Assembly: GCA_964456955.1 (NCBI GenBank)
Contig: CAYWDC010000001.1
Span: forward strand, 1-38,582
Direction: 5' to 3'
Source of the DNA: an uncultured Gammaproteobacteria bacterium
GTDB taxonomy: Bacteria; Pseudomonadota; Gammaproteobacteria; JABDGN01
Length of the DNA: 38,582 bases
Shown: positions 2,843-12,965 of the stretch, one piece after another
Layout: each line of letters opens with the position of its first letter
Position numbering within the stretch: position 1 is the stretch's first letter
Made by a program: the position numbers and the translations under genes
Notes under the pieces: generated by a model
The model's database searches: none
What the model was told of the DNA's origin: nothing
Seen by the model: only the letters and a program-made list of their open reading frames with translations

Positions 2843-3853
2843 TTAGGTAACTTTTGTAAAGTGCAACCATCGCGCTAGATCTTTAGCGAAGTAAGTAATT
2901 ATAAAATCAGTACCAGCTCGTTTGAGAGCAAGCATATTTTCAATGACCACACTTTTTTCATCAAGCCAACGCCTTTCTGCAGCTGCCTTAATCATCGCGT
3001 ATACACCGCTGACATCATAAGCAGCAAGTGGCACTTGCGGAAACTTTTGTTTAACACGATGGATGATATCTAAATTGGTGATTGCAGGTTTTATCATAAT
3101 GATATCTGCACCTTCGGCAATATCAAGCTCAGTTTCACGCAAGGCTTCATTGGTATTGGCCACATCCATCTGATAGCTTTGTCGATCGCCGCGTTGTGGC
3201 CCACTATCGGCAGCGTCACGGAATGGACTATAGTAGGATGACGCATATTTGACGCTGTAACTTAAAATGGGTACGTGTTGATAATTTGCTTGGTCCAAGG
3301 CACGACGAATTACTTGCACCATTCCATCGATCATGCCGCTTGGCGCAAGCATATCGACACCCGCATTAGCATGTGCAAGCGCTTGTTTTTTCAGGATTTC
3401 TAAGGTTTTATCATTGTTGACATCTAACCTGCTCACGGTTTCGTCAAGGATGCCGCAGTGTCCATGATCAGTAAACTCACAACAACAAATATCGCTGATT
3501 ATCAGTAAATCGGGTGCCATGCTTTTTATTTGGCGAATCGCCTGCTGCACAATACCGTTATCACTGTAAGCATCTGAACCGTAGCCATCTTTTTTTTGTG
3601 GAATGCCAAACAATAACACCGCAGGGATATTTAAGGTCTGGATGTTATTAATTTCAACAGACAAATTTTCTAGGGTAATTTGATACTGTCCTGGCATGCT
3701 AGCGATAGGAGTGTTTGCGCCTCGAACATGCTTGATAAACAGTGGGTAAACGAAATCATTGATGCTAAGGTGCGTTTCACGTACCAAGTCACGCACTTTT
3801 GGGTGATAGCGTAAGCGGCGTAGTCGTGTTGTTGGAAAAGAGGTGTTAGTCAT
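2843..3853 (-). CDS. hemB: Porphobilinogen synthase (delta-aminolevulinate dehydratase), Zn-type
   Basis: Motifs are the N-terminal TTRLRRLR, the cysteine-rich metal site DICCCEFTDHGHCG, and the active-site Lys region IMIKPA. I place the start at ATG 3853 (MTNTSFPTTRLRRLR), which overlaps the tolC stop in ATGACTAA. The track ORF extends 11 codons further, to 3886. Confidence 0.9.
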   Translation of the reverse strand: MTNTSFPTTRLRRLRYHPKVRDLVRETHLSINDFVYPLFIKHVRGANTPIASMPGQYQITLENLSVEINNIQTLNIPAVLLFGIPQKKDGYGSDAYSDNGIVQQAIRQIKSMAPDLLIISDICCCEFTDHGHCGILDETVSRLDVNNDKTLEILKKQALAHANAGVDMLAPSGMIDGMVQVIRRALDQANYQHVPILSYSVKYASSYYSPFRDAADSGPQRGDRQSYQMDVANTNEALRETELDIAEGADIIMIKPAITNLDIIHRVKQKFPQVPLAAYDVSGVYAMIKAAAERRWLDEKSVVIENMLALKRAGTDFIITYFAKDLARWLHFTKVT

Positions 3854-5327
3854 CAGGTGGTTTTTTAGTGATTTCTTTTGCCGCATCTTGTTCTAGCACC
3901 ATAGACTCTTCATTGCTGTTATCTTGTTGTAATAATTTATTTTGCACAAGGAGGTTTTGCTGTTTTTTTAACTCGGATGTTGCTTCATGCTTAGTATTAT
4001 GCGCCTCGCTGTTTGGCACATTGGTGAGATAAAGGTTGACTTGCCGTAAGTCATTGACGCCAAGGATGCCGACAGCTTTTTTCAGTTTAAAGGTGTTAAT
4101 GATATGATCAAACAGATCACTGGTATAGTTTTGTTGACTCTGGTAAAGTTTTGCTTGTGCGCTCAATACATCAGCGATGGTTTTTGTACCAACTTGATAA
4201 CTTGCTTCATTACTTGCTAAGGATGCCTTTGCCGAGTTGATTGCTAGTTTGTCGGCTTTAATTTTGCTGATGTCTGCAGACAACTCCAAGTAGGCATTAC
4301 GAGCCTCAGCGAGGATTTTCCGATGGGTCTGATCTGTGGCAGCGACGGCGATTTGGTAATTGTATTCAGCCGTCTTGGTTTCAGCGCTGTACAAGCCACC
4401 TTGATATAGTGGTACATTTAATGTGACGCCGATTGTTGAATTATAGTACTCTGATTTTCTAAAATAATCATGAGTGTAATTATAATTGCCATTTAAGCGG
4501 AGGGTGGCCATTTTTCGTGCAGATGTTGCTTTAATATTCTCTTTTGTTGCTAGTGCATGATAGCGAGCTGCCATCAGGCTTAAATTATGTTGTTCTGCTG
4601 CTTTAGCCCATTCATCGATGCTTGCCGGGGCTGGTTTTACTAACGGAAAACTCTCTTTGAGCTTGGCGAGGGAACGATAAAACTGTCCAGTGATTTGCCA
4701 TAGCGCTTCCTTATCACTGGCTAATTTATTTTCCGCAGCAAGGTAAGATGCTTTTGCCAAAGCATAGCTGGAGCGTGCATCGTAAACGGACGTAATGGTA
4801 TCTAAGCCAACCTTATAACGTTGCATCGCTATTTGCAGTGAACTGTACAATTGTCGTACATTAGCCATAGAATAATCGAGTACGGCCAGGTCTTTTAATA
4901 TGGTAAAATAAGCGGTTGCAGTGCGCATGATAAGACTTTCCATTGCAACACCGTAATCGGCAGCTGCCGATTTAACATCGAGCTTTATCTCTTTATAATT
5001 TTTCAACTTACTCAAATCGAATAAACTTTGATTCAATGACAAGGTGGCGTCAAACTGGTTAGTCGGACTGAGATAACGCCTACTTCTATCCACGGTCTTA
5101 TTCTGACTACTTTCTAGGTTCAAGTTGGGTAAAAAAGCGGCGCGTGCTTGTGGCAGTTTCGAACGTGCGCTCATATAAGTTGATTTTGCCCGCTTATAGG
5201 TGGGATCACTGGCTTGTGCTTGTCGGTAAACTTGCAGCAGATTAGTGGCCGGGGCTTTGGTAATGTTCCCCACTAATATCATGATGCAAAATAAAAGTGT
5301 TAGTTTTTTTACTGTCTTTATTGTCAT
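3846..5327 (-). CDS. tolC: TolC-family outer membrane efflux channel
   Basis: 493 aa. There is an N-terminal signal peptide (MTIKTVKKLTLLFCIMILVGNITKAPA). The TolC-like repeat begins LLQVYRQAQASDPTYKRAK...LPNLNL, and a second repeat half and a hydrophilic C-terminal tail follow. Confidence 0.85.
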   Translation of the reverse strand: MTIKTVKKLTLLFCIMILVGNITKAPATNLLQVYRQAQASDPTYKRAKSTYMSARSKLPQARAAFLPNLNLESSQNKTVDRSRRYLSPTNQFDATLSLNQSLFDLSKLKNYKEIKLDVKSAAADYGVAMESLIMRTATAYFTILKDLAVLDYSMANVRQLYSSLQIAMQRYKVGLDTITSVYDARSSYALAKASYLAAENKLASDKEALWQITGQFYRSLAKLKESFPLVKPAPASIDEWAKAAEQHNLSLMAARYHALATKENIKATSARKMATLRLNGNYNYTHDYFRKSEYYNSTIGVTLNVPLYQGGLYSAETKTAEYNYQIAVAATDQTHRKILAEARNAYLELSADISKIKADKLAINSAKASLASNEASYQVGTKTIADVLSAQAKLYQSQQNYTSDLFDHIINTFKLKKAVGILGVNDLRQVNLYLTNVPNSEAHNTKHEATSELKKQQNLLVQNKLLQQDNSNEESMVLEQDAAKEITKKPPDD

Positions 5328-5782
5328 CAGCAGAGCTTACGTATCTCGTACACTCAAGTATTGGATATAAAATGTTTTTTTACTCAACTTACTGCCTGCG
5401 CCGGAACCTGTGATGAATCATCACCTGCTTTTTTGCTGTTTCACCTATACTTGTAGTGAATAAATGCTCATGTCAATTACGTATGCTGATATTCCTGGCA
5501 GCATGCGCAAGATACATGCAAGATGAGATTTTGCCGGTCAACTGACCAGGGTTTCCGGGCAATATTGTCGTTCATCTACATCTTTTGATTTTTATTGTCT
5601 GTTAAAGTATACACGAATATAATGCAAATAAAATAAAAAATCATGGTGGTTACCCGCGGCGAAATCCAACTCTGAATGTAGGGTTAGTGTTGCGTCGTAG
5701 GATAAGTATCAATAAGTCCTACAACAAAGGAGCTGCGCTTAACATAGGTGTACAATACGCGCCTGTCCAGTATAATGATATT

Positions 5783-6529
5783 ATGAAAATAAATGTACTA
5801 CAAATTACTGACTGCCATCTATTTGCTGACTCGACCCAGCAGCTAAGAGGTGTCGATACCGAGCAAAGTTTTTTACGGGTATTAGCAGCAATTTGTGCGA
5901 CCACAAGAACCCCAGACCTTATTTTATTAACTGGGGATTTGGCAGATCTGGGCGAAGCCGATGCCTATCGTCGTTTGCTGACACATTGTCAGCGATTGAC
6001 TTGTCCGGTTTTTGCAATCCCGGGTAATCATGACCAAGTGGCTGTGATGAAGCAAATATTCAAAGATAGCAAAATTTCCATGAATCCATCCTTTGTCCGA
6101 GGTGGCTGGCATGTTATTTTGTTGAATTCGGTAGTGCTAGGCGATGACGAAGGCACGCTTGCCCCGAGTGAATTACATTTTCTGCAAACAGCATTGACAC
6201 ATTATGCTACATTGCCAACATTGATTGCCTTGCATCACCACGTGAAACCCGTTCATGGTTATATGGATACGATGATGTTAACCAATGCTGATCTGTTTCA
6301 TGAGATTATCACAGCGCATAAGAGTGTACGTGTGGTGCTGTCTGGCCATGTGCATCAAGCTTTTGAGGAATCATGCAATCATGTAAGGTATCTCGCCAGT
6401 CCATCCACTTGTTTTCAAATTAAAGTCAATATTCCCGAATTTACCAAAGATGAAACATCGATGCCTGGCTATCGCTGGTTAGCATTATATGACGATGGTA
6501 AAATCGAAACCGAAGTGGTTAGGGTTTAA
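5783..6529 (+). CDS. cpdA: 3',5'-cyclic-nucleotide phosphodiesterase CpdA (metallophosphoesterase)
   Basis: Metallophosphoesterase motifs are present: ITDCHL, LTGDLAD, GNHD and SGHVHQ. I use ATG 5783 (MKINVLQITDCHLF). The track ORF starts at GTG 5687 and adds a basic, non-conserved 32-aa extension. The position after tolC matches the E. coli tolC / nudF-yqiB-cpdA-yqiA-parE neighbourhood. Confidence 0.85.
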   Translation: MKINVLQITDCHLFADSTQQLRGVDTEQSFLRVLAAICATTRTPDLILLTGDLADLGEADAYRRLLTHCQRLTCPVFAIPGNHDQVAVMKQIFKDSKISMNPSFVRGGWHVILLNSVVLGDDEGTLAPSELHFLQTALTHYATLPTLIALHHHVKPVHGYMDTMMLTNADLFHEIITAHKSVRVVLSGHVHQAFEESCNHVRYLASPSTCFQIKVNIPEFTKDETSMPGYRWLALYDDGKIETEVVRV

Positions 6530-6586
6530 TCGTTAATGCACCTGCGTGATATGGCCATGAAGTGGTAGAGTCAAATAGGAAGACTC

Positions 6587-6663
6587 ATGGCAAAAAATTA
6601 TAGTGCTAAGATATTGTAGTATTAAACGGTCTTGAACTGGTACAATGTCGTACTGGGTATGTG
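6587..6663 (+). pseudogene. parE: parE (topoisomerase IV subunit B) 5' stub, frameshifted and truncated
   Basis: Hand translation gives ATG 6587 MAKNYSAK, then a stop after two more codons. A shift of +1 at about 6610 gives DIVVLNGLELVQCRTGYV. Joined, MAKNYSAK/DIVVLNGLELVQCRTGYV matches the ParE/GyrB N-terminus (E. coli ParE MTQTYNADAIEVLTGLEPVRRRPGMY) at 11 of 23 aligned positions. No similarity continues past about 6663. The stub lies 58 nt after cpdA, where parE normally sits. Confidence 0.6.
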
Positions 6664-6700
6664 CTTCGACGCATCCAAATGTTCTTATGGCTACCCAGTT

Positions 6701-6718
6701 ATTTGTGAAGTCACAAAT
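6701..6718. promoter_or_regulatory. Perfect 18-bp palindrome ATTTGTGA-AG-TCACAAAT, a candidate operator upstream of the MFS gene
   Basis: Read directly from the sequence. The 8-bp arms are perfect reverse complements and lie 46 nt upstream of ATG 6764. An extended -10-like TGgTACAAT lies at 6638-6646. Confidence 0.35.
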
Positions 6719-6763
6719 CAGTTCATAATATTTTTATCTTGTAAAATCTAACAAGTCTATTTT

Positions 6764-8002
6764 ATGTCAATTAAAATGATAATCATTAGTGTCGCTGTTT
6801 GGCTTGTTGCCACAGTGTTTTATTCGTTGGATTACTTCCAGCATGCCTCCCCCAGTGTATTGTTAATGCCGATTGCCGTGTCGATGCATATGGATGTGAA
6901 TACTGTTGTCGGCGTCATGGCGATTTATTGGCCTGTGTATGCGATATCGCAGCTCCCGGTAGGTTGGTTGCTTGATCGATATGGTTACCAATGGGTCTTG
7001 CCGATTTGCTGCACGATTATGAGTGCGGCTATCGTTATATTTTCGCACATTCCGGTGCTACCTATCATGTGGTTAGCACGAATATTTATCGCCATCGGTT
7101 CTGCCGCCGCTTTTTTAGGGGTATTGAAAGTTGCTGCGATGATGCTGCCCAACTCTATTTTCCCTGTGGCGGTGGGGTTAACCAATACCATTGGCACGTT
7201 GAGTGCCATATTTGGCCAAGTGTTGCTAAGCTATGGTATTACACATTTGGGTTGGCAAAACGCATTGTCGTTGATTGGTTATTTTGGCTTAATATATGGT
7301 GTTGTGCTGTATCTTTGCTTGCGTATCAAGACGCAGACCAAGCATAGTAATATTTCGCGCAAATTATCTTTACAACATTTGGGTGTATTGCAGTCAAAAG
7401 AACTCTGGTTTATTGCCCTTTATGCGGGTCTTATGGTTGGCACGGTTGTTAATGCGTTTTCTGAGCTTTTTGATGTTGTTTTTTTACAATATACTTACCA
7501 CTTAACCGCTATAAAAGCCGCGTCAATCAGTTCCACTATATTTATTGGCATTGCAGTTGGCGGACCCAGTCATGGTGTGATTAGTGCGTTGATAGGTGGC
7601 AAAAAGCGATCGATGATCATTGCAAATCTGTTAACGATTGTCATTTTCGGTATCATTGTATTATTGCCTGCTGCACTGAGTGTGCTTTCTTTATATGTGC
7701 TCTATTTTTCTTTAGGCTTTTTTATTTCCAGTATGTTACTGGCTTTTTCAGTGGTCAATGATATTTTTCCCAATGAAATGCAAGGAACGGTGTTGGCAAT
7801 CGTGAACATGGTTATTGGTTTGTGTGCCGCTTTTTTTCAGCGCTTCATTGGTCATGTCAGTGCCTGCATCAATGGCGGTGACATTAAAATGATAAATAAT
7901 CCCCATGTTTTCACTTTATCGTTTATTTTCTTGTTATGTCCATTGATGTTAAGCTTTGTTTTATTATTATTTACGCGTACGCGTTATAAGGTCATGATTT
8001 AA
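6764..8002 (+). CDS. MFS transporter (12-TM type), substrate unknown
   Basis: 412 aa and highly hydrophobic, with about 12 predicted helices. The loop 2-3 region LLDRYGYQWV resembles the MFS signature. The specific subfamily was not recognised. Confidence 0.7.
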   Translation: MSIKMIIISVAVWLVATVFYSLDYFQHASPSVLLMPIAVSMHMDVNTVVGVMAIYWPVYAISQLPVGWLLDRYGYQWVLPICCTIMSAAIVIFSHIPVLPIMWLARIFIAIGSAAAFLGVLKVAAMMLPNSIFPVAVGLTNTIGTLSAIFGQVLLSYGITHLGWQNALSLIGYFGLIYGVVLYLCLRIKTQTKHSNISRKLSLQHLGVLQSKELWFIALYAGLMVGTVVNAFSELFDVVFLQYTYHLTAIKAASISSTIFIGIAVGGPSHGVISALIGGKKRSMIIANLLTIVIFGIIVLLPAALSVLSLYVLYFSLGFFISSMLLAFSVVNDIFPNEMQGTVLAIVNMVIGLCAAFFQRFIGHVSACINGGDIKMINNPHVFTLSFIFLLCPLMLSFVLLLFTRTRYKVMI

Positions 8003-8120
8003 ATACGCCAGATTAATTAAATGATCGGTTGGTTAACATTTTTAACTAAGATTGCAGATTTAAGTTTGGCTAAGTCTCGTTGTTAAATTGACTAGTATGA
8101 ATATATAAGACAAGGTTACT

Positions 8121-8470
8121 ATGACAGAATCGCAGCCGTTGCACCTGTTCACTGAGAAGGCGTATCTTAACTATTCCATGTATGTGTGATCCTCGATCGC
8201 GCCTTACCTCACGTTGGTGATGGCTTAAAACCGGTCCAGCGTCGCACTATCTATGCCATGTCGGAATTAGGTTTAAATGCGTCGGCAAAATATAAAAAAT
8301 CGGCACGCACCATCGGTGATGTGTTGGGTAAATTTCATCCGCATGGTGATAGTGCTTGTTATGAAGCCATGGTACTGATGGCACAAGATTTTTCCTATCG
8401 TTATCCTTTAATCGATGGACAAGGCAATTGGGGTTCACCCGATGACTCAAAATCATTGTCAACGGAATAG
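8121..8470 (+). pseudogene. parC: parC (topoisomerase IV subunit A) 5' fragment with a +2 frameshift, truncated
   Basis: ATG 8121 gives [22 protein letters not shown] then TGA. The frame starting at 8186 continues [89 protein letters not shown]. This is nearly identical to the E. coli ParC N-terminus, including the QRDR. An extra TG in GTGTG (8184-8188) breaks the frame. The fragment ends ...KSLSTE-stop, where ParC and GyrA carry KSxAAMRYTE with the catalytic Tyr. Confidence 0.85.
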
Positions 8471-8487
8471 ATAGGCAGTGGTAGTAG

Positions 8488-8516
8488 TTGACATTAGATG
8501 CCAGTAATCCTATTTT
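8488..8516 (+). promoter_or_regulatory. Candidate sigma70 promoter for ppc (TTGACA, 17 nt, TATTTT)
   Basis: TTGACA lies at 8488-8493, followed by a 17-nt spacer and TATTTT at 8511-8516, about 70 nt upstream of the ppc ATG. This is a sequence match only. Confidence 0.3.
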
Positions 8517-8586
8517 ACTATATTAACTGTTTTAGGGATTAACTAAATATTATAGTGGCAATTGAATAGAAAGGGAAAACCTTATC

Positions 8587-11205
8587 ATGGCAGCAATAAA
8601 ACGCACAATAAGCGATGACATCCATATCTTAGGCGATTTATTAGGACAGATACTGAGGCTGTATGAGGGAGAATCGACTTATGCCTTAGTAGAAAAAATT
8701 CGTATTTTATCAAAATCTTCGCGAGAATCTGAGAAAGATTTACAGACGTTGCATCGTCTCATTCATGATGTGCCAGACGACCTGACACCCCAGTTAGCAA
8801 GGGCGTTTGGCCAGTTTCTACATTTAGCTAATATTACTGAATCTTATGATAATCAACGGCAGTTACGCCAACAACCAGAACCTCTGATGGCTATGTTGCC
8901 TAAGCTGTTAAAAAAGAAACTCTCTGCTAAAAAGATTGCTAACGCCTTACGTGAGCAACAAATCGAATTAGTATTGACTGCACATCCTACAGAGGTCAAA
9001 CGTCGTACTTTGATTCAAAAGTATAGTTATATTGCTGGTTTATTAGAGCAACGTGATCGTATAGAAATGACGAAAGATGAGATTGCACATTGGCAAGATA
9101 AACTGAAAACAACAGTGAATGCTATTTGGTTAACCGATGAAATTCGTCGCGTTCGTCCCACCCCAGTTGAAGAAGCTAAGTGGGGATTTGCCATCATCGA
9201 GGATACGCTTTGGCATGCTATACCACAATATTTTCGGCAACTTGATGCTGCTATGCAAAAGTACTTAGGAGAAAATTTGCCGTTAGATTGCACCCCTATT
9301 CGAATAGGGTCTTGGATGGGTGGTGATCGTGATGGTAACCCTCACGTTACGGCGGCAGTGACTCAGGAAGTATTGCTACTCGCGCAATGGGTGGCTATGG
9401 ACCTTTATACACGAGAGGTTAATCACATGATACAGCATTTGTCGTTGCATGCATGTAACGAATCATTGCGCCAAAGTGTGGGAGAAACCTCTCAACCTTA
9501 TCGAGCGTGTCTGCGTATTTTACGCGATCGTTTAAAAGCAACAGGTGCTTGGTTACAATCCCAATTGGCTGGCCATACAATTGAGCCTAAGATGTCGTTG
9601 ATATTATGTCGTGAAGATTTATTGCAGCCTTTGATGCTTTGCTATCAGTCATTGTTAGATTGTAATGCAAGTGCTATTGCCAATGCTGACCTGTTAGATT
9701 TAATTCGTCGCGTACATGTATTTGGTATCTCGTTGATGCGTTTAGATATCCGCCAAGCAGCTGATTATCATACGGAAGCTATCGCTACCATTACAAATTA
9801 TTTTGGCTTAGGTAACTATGCAAACTGGTCAGAACAAGAGAGATGTTTATTTCTGCAACAAGAACTAGGCAACAAGCGATCTTTACCGTTAGCTGAGTTA
9901 ACCGTTAGTGAAAACGTTCAGGAGGTATTTGACACTTGCCTATGTATTGCAGCACAAAATCCTGACATCATGGGTGCTTATGTAATTTCTATGGCCAGTG
10001 CAGCGTCGGATGTTTTAGCCGTACATTTGCTGCAAAAAGTGGCGGGTGTGAAACAGCCAATGCGTGTGGTTCCGCTCTTTGAGACACTTGATGATCTAAA
10101 TCATGCTGCCGGTGTGATGCAAGCGTTATATAATATGCCGATTTATAAGAACATGCTAAATGGCCAACAGGAAGTTATGATTGGCTATTCAGACTCAGGT
10201 AAAGATGCCGGCAAGTTAGCCGCTAGTTGGGCACAATATGAAGCACAAGAACAGCTACTTCATGTATCGCAACAAGCAGACATACAATTGACTATATTTC
10301 ATGGTCGTGGTGGTTCAGTTGGTAGAGGTGGCGGGCCAGTGCATGCTACCTTACTGTCTCAACCGCCAGGTTCTGTACAAGGTCGCATGCGCGTAACCGA
10401 ACAGGGTGAGGTGATCCAACAGAAATATGGGTTGCTTACTTGGGCACAGCACAATCTCATGTTGTATAGTGTTGCGATGTTAGAGGCAACACTCATACCA
10501 CCGCCAGAGCCTAAACCAGAATGGCGTGAAATAATGGCTCAAATATCAGAAATTTCATTACATGTGTATCGAAAAATAGTGAGGGAGAATCAAGATTTTG
10601 TCACGTACTTTCGACAGGTAACGCCAGAACAGGAATTAGGTCGATTGTTAATTGGTAGTCGACCCAATAGACGTAAAGCAAAGGGTGGTATTGAAAACTT
10701 GCGTGCCATTCCTTGGGTATTTGCCTGGACACAAACACGCTTGATGTTACCAACCTGGTTGGGTATCGGCGAAGCATTAGACGCGTTATGGTCTAAGCAA
10801 AAAGATATGTTGTGCGATATGCTCAATGACTGGCCATTTTTCTCTGTGTTAATAGATATGCTTGACATGACGCTAACTAAGACTGACATTGATATTGCTG
10901 CTTATTACGATGCTTGTTTAGCAAGCCCGGAGACCAAAACATTTGGTGCCGATCTGCGTCGCCGGTTAAAACAGACCGAGGAGATAGTACGAGTCATTGC
11001 TGCCAATCAGACTTTTCAGGAACCGCAGCAGAACTTATATAAGTCTCTTAAGGTGCGTAACACTTATGCGGATCCGTTGAATTTCTTACAGGCGGAAGTT
11101 ATGAGGCGATTACGTCAAGGAAGGGTACATAATAAGGCAGCTTTGGAGGACGCATTGGTTTTGTGTGTCGCTGGGATTGCGGCAGCAATGAAGAATACGG
11201 GTTGA
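8587..11205 (+). CDS. ppc: Phosphoenolpyruvate carboxylase
   Basis: 872 aa and intact. Motifs are VLTAHPTEVKRRT, GYSDSGKDAG, FHGRGGSVGRGGGP and the C-terminal ...AAMKNTG, the canonical Ppc terminus. Confidence 0.95.
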   Translation: MAAIKRTISDDIHILGDLLGQILRLYEGESTYALVEKIRILSKSSRESEKDLQTLHRLIHDVPDDLTPQLARAFGQFLHLANITESYDNQRQLRQQPEPLMAMLPKLLKKKLSAKKIANALREQQIELVLTAHPTEVKRRTLIQKYSYIAGLLEQRDRIEMTKDEIAHWQDKLKTTVNAIWLTDEIRRVRPTPVEEAKWGFAIIEDTLWHAIPQYFRQLDAAMQKYLGENLPLDCTPIRIGSWMGGDRDGNPHVTAAVTQEVLLLAQWVAMDLYTREVNHMIQHLSLHACNESLRQSVGETSQPYRACLRILRDRLKATGAWLQSQLAGHTIEPKMSLILCREDLLQPLMLCYQSLLDCNASAIANADLLDLIRRVHVFGISLMRLDIRQAADYHTEAIATITNYFGLGNYANWSEQERCLFLQQELGNKRSLPLAELTVSENVQEVFDTCLCIAAQNPDIMGAYVISMASAASDVLAVHLLQKVAGVKQPMRVVPLFETLDDLNHAAGVMQALYNMPIYKNMLNGQQEVMIGYSDSGKDAGKLAASWAQYEAQEQLLHVSQQADIQLTIFHGRGGSVGRGGGPVHATLLSQPPGSVQGRMRVTEQGEVIQQKYGLLTWAQHNLMLYSVAMLEATLIPPPEPKPEWREIMAQISEISLHVYRKIVRENQDFVTYFRQVTPEQELGRLLIGSRPNRRKAKGGIENLRAIPWVFAWTQTRLMLPTWLGIGEALDALWSKQKDMLCDMLNDWPFFSVLIDMLDMTLTKTDIDIAAYYDACLASPETKTFGADLRRRLKQTEEIVRVIAANQTFQEPQQNLYKSLKVRNTYADPLNFLQAEVMRRLRQGRVHNKAALEDALVLCVAGIAAAMKNTG

Positions 11206-11349
11206 GGGCGGTAGTTGAGAAGGGAATATAATATTGTGTCCATATACCTCGATTTAAACTCATAGTTTCCAGTTTCGCTAAATAACATGCGATTTTATAG
11301 AGAATTGCTTCTGGTTAATAATATAAGCAAAAATACACCATAATAATGA

Positions 11350-11862
11350 GTCCGCAGTAATCTTAAATGGGGGCTGTCGATTATTGTTTACTCTAAAATC
11401 AGTTTTGCAAGGCACCCTGTATTGACCTCCATTACCCATTTAACTCAGAAAGTAAAAAGCATGACTTTACAAAATTTCAGGTTAACTCGTTTGGATAGCT
11501 AAATAAACCGACAAAGCCTAAATGTGATGAATCTAAATCTAGTGAATAATTACTCTAATCGTGTGGTGGTCACCAACACGGGATATTTGTTGCTGTTCGC
11601 AGTCAATGAACTGCCGCAATTGGCCAAGGGTAAAGGGAATAAGATGATCAATATTCCGATGGCAAAATACAAGGACAAAGAAGAATACATTGTCGATGTT
11701 GCGGTGTTGCACAGTAAGCAAGCATGAGTATTTTATTCTTGGAAACGGCAAATCACCTTAAAAGCAAAAGATCTGGCTCGTTATCTTGGGAAGCGTGGAC
11801 AACGTGGCAGCAAATTACCGCGCGGTTACCAGCGCGTAAGCCGCATAGCGGTCGTTGTGTAA
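11350..11862 (+). pseudogene. parC: parC 3' relic in a single frame with two in-frame stops
   Basis: The frame of ORF 11524..11727 reads NRVVVTNTGYLLLFAVNELPQLAKGKGNKMINIP. E. coli ParC has ITQAGRMLMFPVSDLPQLSKGKGNKIINIP. After TGA at 11725-11727 the same frame continues ITLKAKDLARYLGKRGQRGSKLPRGYQRVSRIAVVV-stop at 11860-11862, matching the ParC tail KLRPEELQKVTGERGRRGTLMRGLQRIDRVEI. Upstream, the same frame carries TAA at 11500-11502 and weaker ParC-like sequence back to the triple stop at 11341-11349. Confidence 0.8.
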
Positions 11863-11996
11863 AAAATGCCATAGTTGGGTTAATAAATCAGCATATGGCC
11901 ATTCAATGGGTTACTGTGAACGCTCATTATACTAAAGGCGATGGAAAAAAGTGATTATATTGCGTTTAAACAGACCATGTGTTAAATTGCACTGCT

Positions 11997-12019
11997 ACCT
12001 TGCAATGACAAGGTTTTTT
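11997..12019 (+). terminator. Rho-independent terminator-like hairpin (ACCTTG-caatga-CAAGGT plus T6)
   Basis: A 6-bp perfect stem and 6-nt loop run directly into TTTTTT. It lies 135 nt after the parC relic stop and only about 25 nt before the ilvE ATG. Confidence 0.4.
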
Positions 12020-12044
12020 ATTTTCATCTAGAGGATGACGGGTG

Positions 12045-12965
12045 ATGCAGCCGACAGCACATATTTGGCAAAATGGACAGTTTGTTCCTTGGCAAGAGGC
12101 CAACACACATGTGCTGAGCCATGGATTGCATTATGGTAGTGGCGTATTCGAAGGTATCCGTTGCTATGAAACCCCACAAGGTAGTGCCATCTTTAAGTTA
12201 GCTGCCCACGTGGCCCGATTAGTCTATTCAGCTAACGCCTTGGGCATGCAATTACCCTATAGTGAAGCTGAGCTGTGTCAAGCCATAACAGACACCGTGG
12301 CTAAGAACCGATTGCAGGCTGGGTACATCCGTCCGTTAGCCTATTATGGTTATGGTGCGTTGGGGGTCATGCCGAGTAAAGAGTTACCGATTGAAGTGGT
12401 TATTGCCTGCTGGCCTTGGGCAGACTACCTAGAAGCACCAGCCGTGGATATTAAGATCAGTGATTTTATTCGTATTCATCCACAATCAAGTGTTGCCGAC
12501 GCAAAAATTTGCGGTCACTATGTCAATAGCCTGTTGGCCCGCACTGCGCTTCGTGATACTCATTACCATGAAGCCTTACTGCTCGATCATGACGGTTTTG
12601 TTGCTGAAGGCAGTGCAGAGAATATCTTCATTGTCCGTGAAGGTCACCTGATCACCACGCCATTGGGCACCATTTTACCGGGTATCACCCGCGCCACGGT
12701 CATGGAGATGGCAGCAAACAGGGGATATGCGGTGAGTGAAGAGCGTTTCACACCCGCGGCGGTGCTGGCAGCCGATGAAGCCTTCTTCTGTGGTACCGCA
12801 GTAGAGATTGTGCCGATCCGCTCGCTCGACGACCAATTGATCGGCAATGGTGAGCCAGGACTCATTAGTCAGCAATTGCAACAGGCGTATCAAGCCATTG
12901 TCCATGATAAAGATGCCGATTTCATGGACGCCTTAACCAGGGTTAATTTCGTAGCAGGAGTATGA
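12045..12965 (+). CDS. ilvE: Branched-chain amino acid aminotransferase (fold type IV)
   Basis: 306 aa from ATG 12045, with GAGGA 9 nt upstream. The N-terminus IWQNGQFVPWQEANTHVLSHGLHYGSGVFEGIRCY, the later EGSAENIF and GITR are typical of IlvE. Confidence 0.9.
   Translation: MQPTAHIWQNGQFVPWQEANTHVLSHGLHYGSGVFEGIRCYETPQGSAIFKLAAHVARLVYSANALGMQLPYSEAELCQAITDTVAKNRLQAGYIRPLAYYGYGALGVMPSKELPIEVVIACWPWADYLEAPAVDIKISDFIRIHPQSSVADAKICGHYVNSLLARTALRDTHYHEALLLDHDGFVAEGSAENIFIVREGHLITTPLGTILPGITRATVMEMAANRGYAVSEERFTPAAVLAADEAFFCGTAVEIVPIRSLDDQLIGNGEPGLISQQLQQAYQAIVHDKDADFMDALTRVNFVAGV

Follow-up and report, generated by a model that had tools for sequence, protein, structure and literature searches.

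In a 38,582-nucleotide contig of an uncultured gammaproteobacterium (GenBank assembly GCA_964456955.1, contig CAYWDC010000001.1; the whole stretch is hereafter called the window), the topoisomerase IV gene parC persists only as a 5' relic and a 3' relic, and an intact gene for phosphoenolpyruvate carboxylase (PEPC), ppc, stands where the middle of parC should be. The reading that we favor, with good though not full confidence, is that this is the ancestral parC locus, now a pseudogene in which the lineage's own relocated ppc has taken the place of the central part. The arrangement was first remarked on in an earlier note made from the sequence alone, some of whose claims are revised below. The elements of the locus are as follows:

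8121–8461, plus strand: parC 5' relic, covering ParC up to residue ~112, with its ATG at 8121.
8462–8586, plus strand: AT-rich leader of 125 nt (31% GC over 8471–8586), holding the TAG at 8468–8470 and the ppc ribosome-binding region.
8488–8516, plus strand: sigma-70-like promoter candidate (TTGACA-17-TATTTT), a consensus match 71 nt ahead of the ppc start codon.
8587–11205, plus strand: intact ppc (phosphoenolpyruvate carboxylase, 872 aa), an uninterrupted open reading frame (ORF) recognized by family profiles.
11206–11520, plus strand: trailing non-coding stretch of 315 nt (35% GC), including TAATAATGA at 11341–11349.
11521–11862, plus strand: parC 3' relic (last blade of the C-terminal domain and the C-terminal tail), delimited by profile matches and by the natural stop TAA at 11860–11862.
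11997–12014, plus strand: predicted terminator-like hairpin (hairpin plus T-run, 11997–12024), lying 3' of the parC stop.

Both flanks of the ppc-bearing segment had been proposed to derive from parC, and both pass statistical testing as ParC and not as GyrA. With its frameshift corrected, the 5' relic matches positions 2–110 of the 735 positions of the parC_Gneg model (TIGR01062; E 2.9e-64, 217 bits), above the scores that it reaches with GyrA models (E 1e-48 to 1e-50, 165–170 bits); it also matches positions 1–85 of 432 in Pfam DNA_topoisoIV (PF00521; E 1e-39), and is 82% identical by tblastn to the ParC of locus L090. The frameshift comes from two inserted nucleotides in GTGTG at about 8184–8188 (~8185), after 22 codons, and leads into a TGA at 8187–8189; past it, the relic reads on in the +2 frame as a 94-aa ORF (8186–8470) that closes at the TAG in the leader. 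Homology to intact parC stops at 8457–8461, with DNA similarity (78%) ending at 8457, and the relic diverges from 120 aligned ParC N-termini after residue 111: where those sequences have KSFAAMRYTE, it ends with DDSKS-LSTE-stop, so the segment with the active-site tyrosine has been lost. That tyrosine is the one in the AAMRYTE motif (Tyr120 in E. coli ParC). Ahead of the breakpoint there are two changes at columns invariant in the 120 sequences (I42T and P109S), a small amount of decay (2 of about 81 invariant columns).

The 3' relic matches positions 626–734 of the 735 in TIGR01062 (E 1.8e-23, 82 bits) and gives no match with GyrA models; a hidden Markov model built from ParC C-termini aligns with it over 11521–11853 (E 7e-45), and tblastn finds it 59% identical to the ParC sequence P0242. 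It contains an in-frame TGA at 11725–11727, and this nonsense codon and the frameshift at ~8185 are two lesions beyond those described in the earlier note. The same note had started the 3' relic at about 11350; although 11350–11520 lies in the same frame, it holds no ParC signal above shuffled sequences (103 of 918 shuffles reach the observed score), and the supported start is therefore about 11521. The triple stop TAATAATGA at the end of the trailing sequence is present letter for letter as described, but it does not bound the relic, and because 11350–11520 carries no supported ParC signal it has no demonstrable meaning.

What is absent between the relics is parC_Gneg model positions 111–625, about 515 codons or ~1.55 kb including the catalytic tyrosine, close to the estimate of about 1.5 kb (residues ~120–600) made beforehand. 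Neither relic (217 and 82 bits) approaches the curated cut-off of TIGR01062 (628.9 bits), and there is no single ORF; the locus is a genuine parC pseudogene, belonging to the ParC family only as a non-functional remnant. Because decay of the relics has not gone far (a single frameshift, a single nonsense codon and two invariant residues altered), the data suggest that parC was inactivated recently relative to the split from the nearest sampled relative. Automatic gene calls place three small proteins at the locus, all on the plus strand (8186–8470, 11524–11727 and 11724–11954). The first and second are in-frame parts of the parC pseudogene, and the third is an artefact that overlaps the 3' relic out of frame and has no Pfam match; for annotation, all three are spurious as genes and belong together as one pseudogene.

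Other irregular parC genes came to light among the loci compared. In an unrelated gammaproteobacterial lineage (L095:1319–3565 and L096:1308–3554), parC has an in-frame TGA at codon 379 (KVIAK*HILEGL) that is the same in an ENA and a JGI assembly, the frame being otherwise open through codon 749; this TGA may be a nonsense mutation, a recoded codon or a second, independent inactivation of parC. Locus L094 (JGI 3300072073 Ga0612063_18888) contains many broken genes (ftsK, rib genes, and a parC fused to pgpA by gene calling), and comes either from an error-rich long-read assembly or from a pseudogene-rich genome.

The ~3.05 kb between the relics (8462–11520) consists of the leader, ppc and the trailer. 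A complete 872-aa ppc with its catalytic motifs had been described there, and profile and sequence comparisons bear this out: the product matches Pfam PEPcase (PF00311) over positions 2–919 of 919 (E=0) and NCBIfam NF000584 over positions 2–898 of 898 (1023.7 bits; curated cut-off 815), and its alignment with E. coli PEPC (1FIY, chain 1fiy_A; E 3.7e-255) extends over the full length. The motifs TAHPTE, RxDIRQ, FETLDDL, GYSDSxKDAG, FHGRGGSxGRGG and LRAIPWxFAWTQ and the C-terminal NTG are kept, and in the 1fiy_A alignment all motifs bearing catalytic and effector-binding residues of the E. coli enzyme are conserved; we take the catalytic and ligand-binding residues to be His138, Arg396, Glu506, Asp543, Arg581, Arg587, Arg713, Lys773, Arg832 and Asn881 (1FIY/1JQN). 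The intact ppc presumably still functions.

The leader has no similarity to parC, to tsaB, to the upstream regions of ppc in relatives or to the rest of the window. The putative promoter pointed out in the leader is there, and is the top-scoring promoter-like site predicted in 7900–12100 (10/12). In the trailer there is no Rfam or tRNA match and no terminator-like site, and its predicted folding is not unusual (z = +1.3); it is unique within the window, and DNA comparison finds no counterpart in relatives. The hairpin at 11997, the only plus-strand terminator-like site in 7900–12100 and so the first downstream of ppc, is probably the former parC terminator. An imperfect 19-nt direct repeat (79%) has one copy at the left breakpoint (8457–8475, TGTCAACGGAATAGATAGG) and the other just upstream of the ppc ribosome-binding site (8556–8574, TGGCAATTGAATAGAAAGG), and is probably due to chance.

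The junctions recur in other assemblies. Proteins of the window are found also in NCBI, ENA and Logan assemblies, and the window is nearly identical to the JGI metagenome contig 3300033127 Ga0326847_10000102 (L001), with five differences across the 21,205 nt compared. Beyond these two, the 5' junction is seen in three other assemblies (L091, L092 and L093) and the 3' junction in two (L002 and L003). The left-hand contigs (ERZ27295575, ERZ27234785 and SRR10694899) carry the transporter gene upstream of parC and the parC 5' relic as far as 8555, are identical to the window there, and run 85 nt beyond the stop of the relic ORF (85–94 nt of non-parC sequence after parC). The right-hand contigs (ERZ27295575 and SRR10694899) begin at 8547 and continue through ppc, the 315-nt trailer, the parC 3' relic, ilvE and further.

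All of these MEGAHIT and Logan contigs thus break between 8547 and 8555, the one observation in favor of an assembly chimera, in which a contig with the 5' fragment of parC would have been joined to one starting with ppc. We consider a chimera highly improbable. The left and right contig ends overlap by exactly 9 nt (8547–8555, ATATTATAG), a Nextera mosaic-end adapter precedes one right-hand contig, and one left-hand contig has adapter at its opposite end; because a 9-nt overlap with adapter is the signature of Tn5 tagmentation, here a cut in one molecule, the break is an artefact of library and assembly and not structural heterogeneity. Moreover, each side alone shows parC abutting non-parC sequence, the left contigs passing from parC into other sequence and the right contigs from ppc into the 3' relic, such that parC is split whether or not the join is accepted. 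Untrimmed Nextera mosaic ends (…AGATGTGTATAAGAGACAG) stand in the ENA and Logan contigs that end at Tn5 cuts (L002:1–42; L091:1–21), and this adapter contamination fragments these public assemblies. The window differs from L001, L002 and L003 at 9561, 9573 and 9588, within 28 nt of ppc, all at third codon positions and synonymous, a cluster that is perhaps the mark of a strain variant or of a short conversion tract. The sole further mismatches of L001 are at positions 143 and 154, and L002 (outside its adapter) and L003 have none.

Several lines of evidence indicate that the inserted ppc is native to the lineage. Its GC content (43.2%) and GC content at third codon positions (GC3, 36.8%) are typical of the other 30 window genes, and its codon-usage distance (0.72) falls within their range (0.63–1.18), in agreement with the remark in the earlier note that composition does not mark the gene as foreign. 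The closest Ppc proteins are P0002 (74% identity), P0003 (59%) and P0004 (58%), followed by a tier of further sequences and Pontiella/Lentisphaera at 51–56% and Pseudomonas at 51%. A Ppc phylogeny had been proposed as a check; in a neighbor-joining tree, the window Ppc pairs with P0002, this pair has P0003 plus P0004 as its sister group, and the clades of Pontiella/Lentisphaera (of the Planctomycetes–Verrucomicrobia–Chlamydiae (PVC) group) and of Pseudomonas stand apart. The grouping with related gammaproteobacterial metagenome-assembled genomes (MAGs) came out as a native gene would have it, while as a test of phylogenetic incongruence the tree is weak, being neighbor-joining only. P0003 comes from MAG GCA_964539235.1, labelled an uncultured gammaproteobacterium, and the closest IlvE to that of the window among 185,579 species genomes is in the same MAG (66% identity); two unlinked genes therefore indicate one relative.

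The gene order of relatives bears on where ppc came from. In the three related lineages that carry these closest Ppc (L004, L005–L008 and L108), ppc is not beside parC but follows tsaB, whose 3' end it overlaps by 25 nt. The earlier note had asked for this comparison, with ppc as an old neighbor of parC-free flanks as the contrary outcome, and the result favors its reading. The overlaps are these:

L004, 10001–10025: tsaB/ppc overlap of 25 nt.
L005, 5446–5470: tsaB/ppc overlap of 25 nt.
L108, 1694–1718: tsaB/ppc overlap of 25 nt, with GTG as the ppc start.

In the outgroup L109, ppc lies in a different context with no tsaB-ppc overlap. Because three related lineages share it, the tsaB-ppc arrangement is by parsimony ancestral in the clade and that of the window derived. 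The overlap suggests translational coupling, which the window ppc would have lost: neither a tsaB gene within the window nor a tsaB remnant upstream of ppc was found (nothing below E 0.2), and a possible resemblance to the last few codons of tsaB upstream of ppc is not significant. Given the native-like composition, the Ppc of clade-mates and the tsaB-ppc linkage in relatives, the best reading is that ppc moved within the genome and was not recently imported.

Horizontal gene transfer had been listed among the possible origins; we weighed it as a recent arrival in parC of ppc with its flanks from an unrelated organism. The nearest named Ppc outside the small clade is that of Pontiella/Lentisphaera (51–55%), marginally above Pseudomonas (51%), and the flanks of the insert match nothing, both of which would suit such an origin. 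Against it stand the native-like codon usage, GC and GC3, the absence of any integrase, tRNA or repeat, and the identities of Ppc to gammaproteobacterial MAGs (74% and 59%), which parallel that of a host gene (IlvE, 66%, in the same MAG); any PVC connection would be older than the common ancestor of the clade. Nor does the segment look like a genomic island: its composition is typical, the window has no tRNA, and its Ppc falls among those of related gammaproteobacterial MAGs (in the neighbor-joining tree only). We therefore regard recent transfer as improbable.

Turning to the recipient site, the order around the insertion is tolC (3846–5327, minus strand), cpdA (5687–6529), a major facilitator superfamily (MFS) transporter (6764–8002), the parC 5' fragment and ppc, continuing with the parC 3' fragment, ilvE (12042–12965), a second MFS transporter on the minus strand, and metK; the remainder of the window is densely coding, with no general decay. 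Among more distant relatives, L090 has the order tolC (minus strand), nudF, yqiB, cpdA, yqiA, parE, one further gene and parC, and in L098, L100 and L104 parC lies ~2 kb from cpdA. parC thus commonly resides in the tolC/cpdA neighborhood, and the simplest view of the relic is that it is the orthologous copy. Because ppc follows tsaB in relatives and parC lies near tolC/cpdA, parC would be the ancestral occupant and ppc the newcomer. By tblastn there is no trace of parE, nudF, yqiB or yqiA in the window, and no relic between tolC and parC (3846–8121); an MFS transporter occupies the cpdA–parC interval.

Searches for closer relatives of the locus added little. A genome scan with IlvE returned 80 loci, the closest at 60–66% identity (gammaproteobacterial MAGs, one labelled Coxiella sp.), and gave no usable synteny because none has parC or any other window gene beside ilvE; a metagenome scan with CpdA found only relatives of 36–41% identity, with parC near cpdA and none with the gene order of the window. 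In homology searches with the ParC relics, the N-terminal query was swamped by conserved gammaproteobacterial fragments and the C-terminal query gave 12 partial matches. The best ParC matches (P0122, P0123, P0126, P0168, P0242 and P0245) were set aside, as they lie in unrelated contexts with 70–78% DNA identity to the relic.

Whether the organism still has topoisomerase IV is a separate matter. The relic may be a redundant or duplicated copy, with an intact parC (and parE) elsewhere; no essential function would then be missing, and the locus would be no more than spare DNA that took up the insert. In favor of this, E. coli cannot live without topoisomerase IV and most Gammaproteobacteria have the enzyme, only 38.6 kb of the genome is visible, and parE too lies outside the window, so both genes could be elsewhere; on the other side, second parC copies are uncommon, and the relic sits in the very neighborhood of the single-copy parC (tolC/cpdA in L090, L098, L100 and L104), which together make a redundant copy unlikely in our judgment. 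Somewhat better placed, although held tentatively and at less than even weight, is the possibility that the lineage is without topoisomerase IV altogether: parC would be dead, parE gone from its place beside cpdA, and gyrase or another enzyme the sole decatenase, with ppc having taken over the vacated transcription unit of parC.

As to mechanism, mobile-element signatures at the junctions had been looked for in the sequence and not seen, and systematic searches agree. In 8000–12100, neither ORFs nor Pfam matches reveal a transposase or integrase; no inverted repeats bracket the segment; the window has no tRNA, and the trailer no Rfam match; and microhomology at the junctions, which had been suggested as a check, amounts to a longest direct repeat of 7 nt, a length that 316 of 500 shuffles reach or surpass. 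Of the other routes that had been put forward, gene conversion is a misfit because the replacing sequence is not homologous to parC, leaving illegitimate recombination, by exclusion of any insertion sequence (IS), repeat, tRNA or integrase signature. We propose, then, that ~515 central codons of parC, the active-site tyrosine among them, would have been replaced by the ~3.05-kb segment bearing the lineage's own ppc, most likely through intragenomic illegitimate recombination (non-homologous or microhomology-mediated). Because coupling to tsaB would have been lost, the ppc transcript probably starts at the predicted sigma-70-like promoter in the leader or else reads through from the promoter of parC, and it probably ends at the predicted old parC terminator.

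The replacement could also have been reached in several steps, parC dying first through the frameshift or the nonsense codon and then losing its middle by deletion, and ppc arriving later by an unrelated rearrangement that broke in neutral DNA. The independent lesions of the relics would fit such a history, as would the 440 nt of AT-rich sequence that flanks ppc and might represent parC in advanced decay or some other DNA. The data do not separate a stepwise origin from a single event, yet with only 2 of ~81 invariant columns changed a long neutral period is disfavored, and we think a stepwise origin rather unlikely, if somewhat less so than a redundant parC copy.

Several points weigh against replacement of the parC middle by a relocated ppc. 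The searches turned up no close relative whose parC is intact in the MFS–parC–ilvE context, so that the state before insertion is reconstructed; the sequences at 8462–8586 and 11206–11520 trace to no known source; and the organism's own tsaB locus is not seen, which makes relocation indistinguishable from duplication followed by loss. The Ppc tree was built from distances and carries no support values, the promoter and the terminator are predicted by consensus matching only, and illegitimate recombination is concluded by exclusion only. Finally, the other assemblies may share the same or related read sets and are perhaps not independent, and the 9 nt at 8547–8555 are spanned only by the window contig and its JGI twin.

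The type of event, gene decay plus rearrangement, is already known and fairly ordinary. Pseudogenes left as terminal fragments are common in bacteria that are losing genes, among them such host-restricted Gammaproteobacteria as the Coxiella-like endosymbionts (PMC4494066), and like them the present locus retains 5' and 3' fragments of a housekeeping gene with a frameshift, a nonsense codon and no mobile element; unlike them, its gap is not a plain deletion or an IS but holds an intact co-oriented metabolic gene, and the window around it is not decaying. Our literature search on parC pseudogenes in symbionts found nothing specific. Topoisomerase IV is naturally absent from Helicobacter pylori (PMC3325230), Mycobacterium tuberculosis (PMC6066988) and Corynebacterium (PMC12561023). 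Should its genome contain no other copy, the organism studied here would resemble them in leaving decatenation to gyrase or other enzymes, and would differ in being a gammaproteobacterium that still carries a relic, with loss in progress, whereas those bacteria lack the genes altogether. The locus is also comparable to relocations with capture of a promoter and terminator, ppc having left the tsaB overlap and now lying between a candidate promoter and the old parC terminator; the expression signals here are predicted, and the move is read from the tsaB-ppc order of relatives and not from a donor site.

What is unusual is the combination, in which a gene essential in model Gammaproteobacteria is dead and an intact housekeeping gene in the same orientation occupies the gap. 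The locus shows cleanly how a metabolic gene can leave an operon in which it overlaps its neighbor (tsaB-ppc) and settle in a dead gene, where it seems to have gained new expression signals; otherwise it is an ordinary product of rearrangement and decay, and opens no long-standing question. Its significance would be greater if the lineage has lost topoisomerase IV, for the locus would then have caught in the act the disappearance of an enzyme considered indispensable in Gammaproteobacteria: if this parC was the sole copy, a gammaproteobacterium can do without topoisomerase IV, and an intermediate state of that loss is preserved here.

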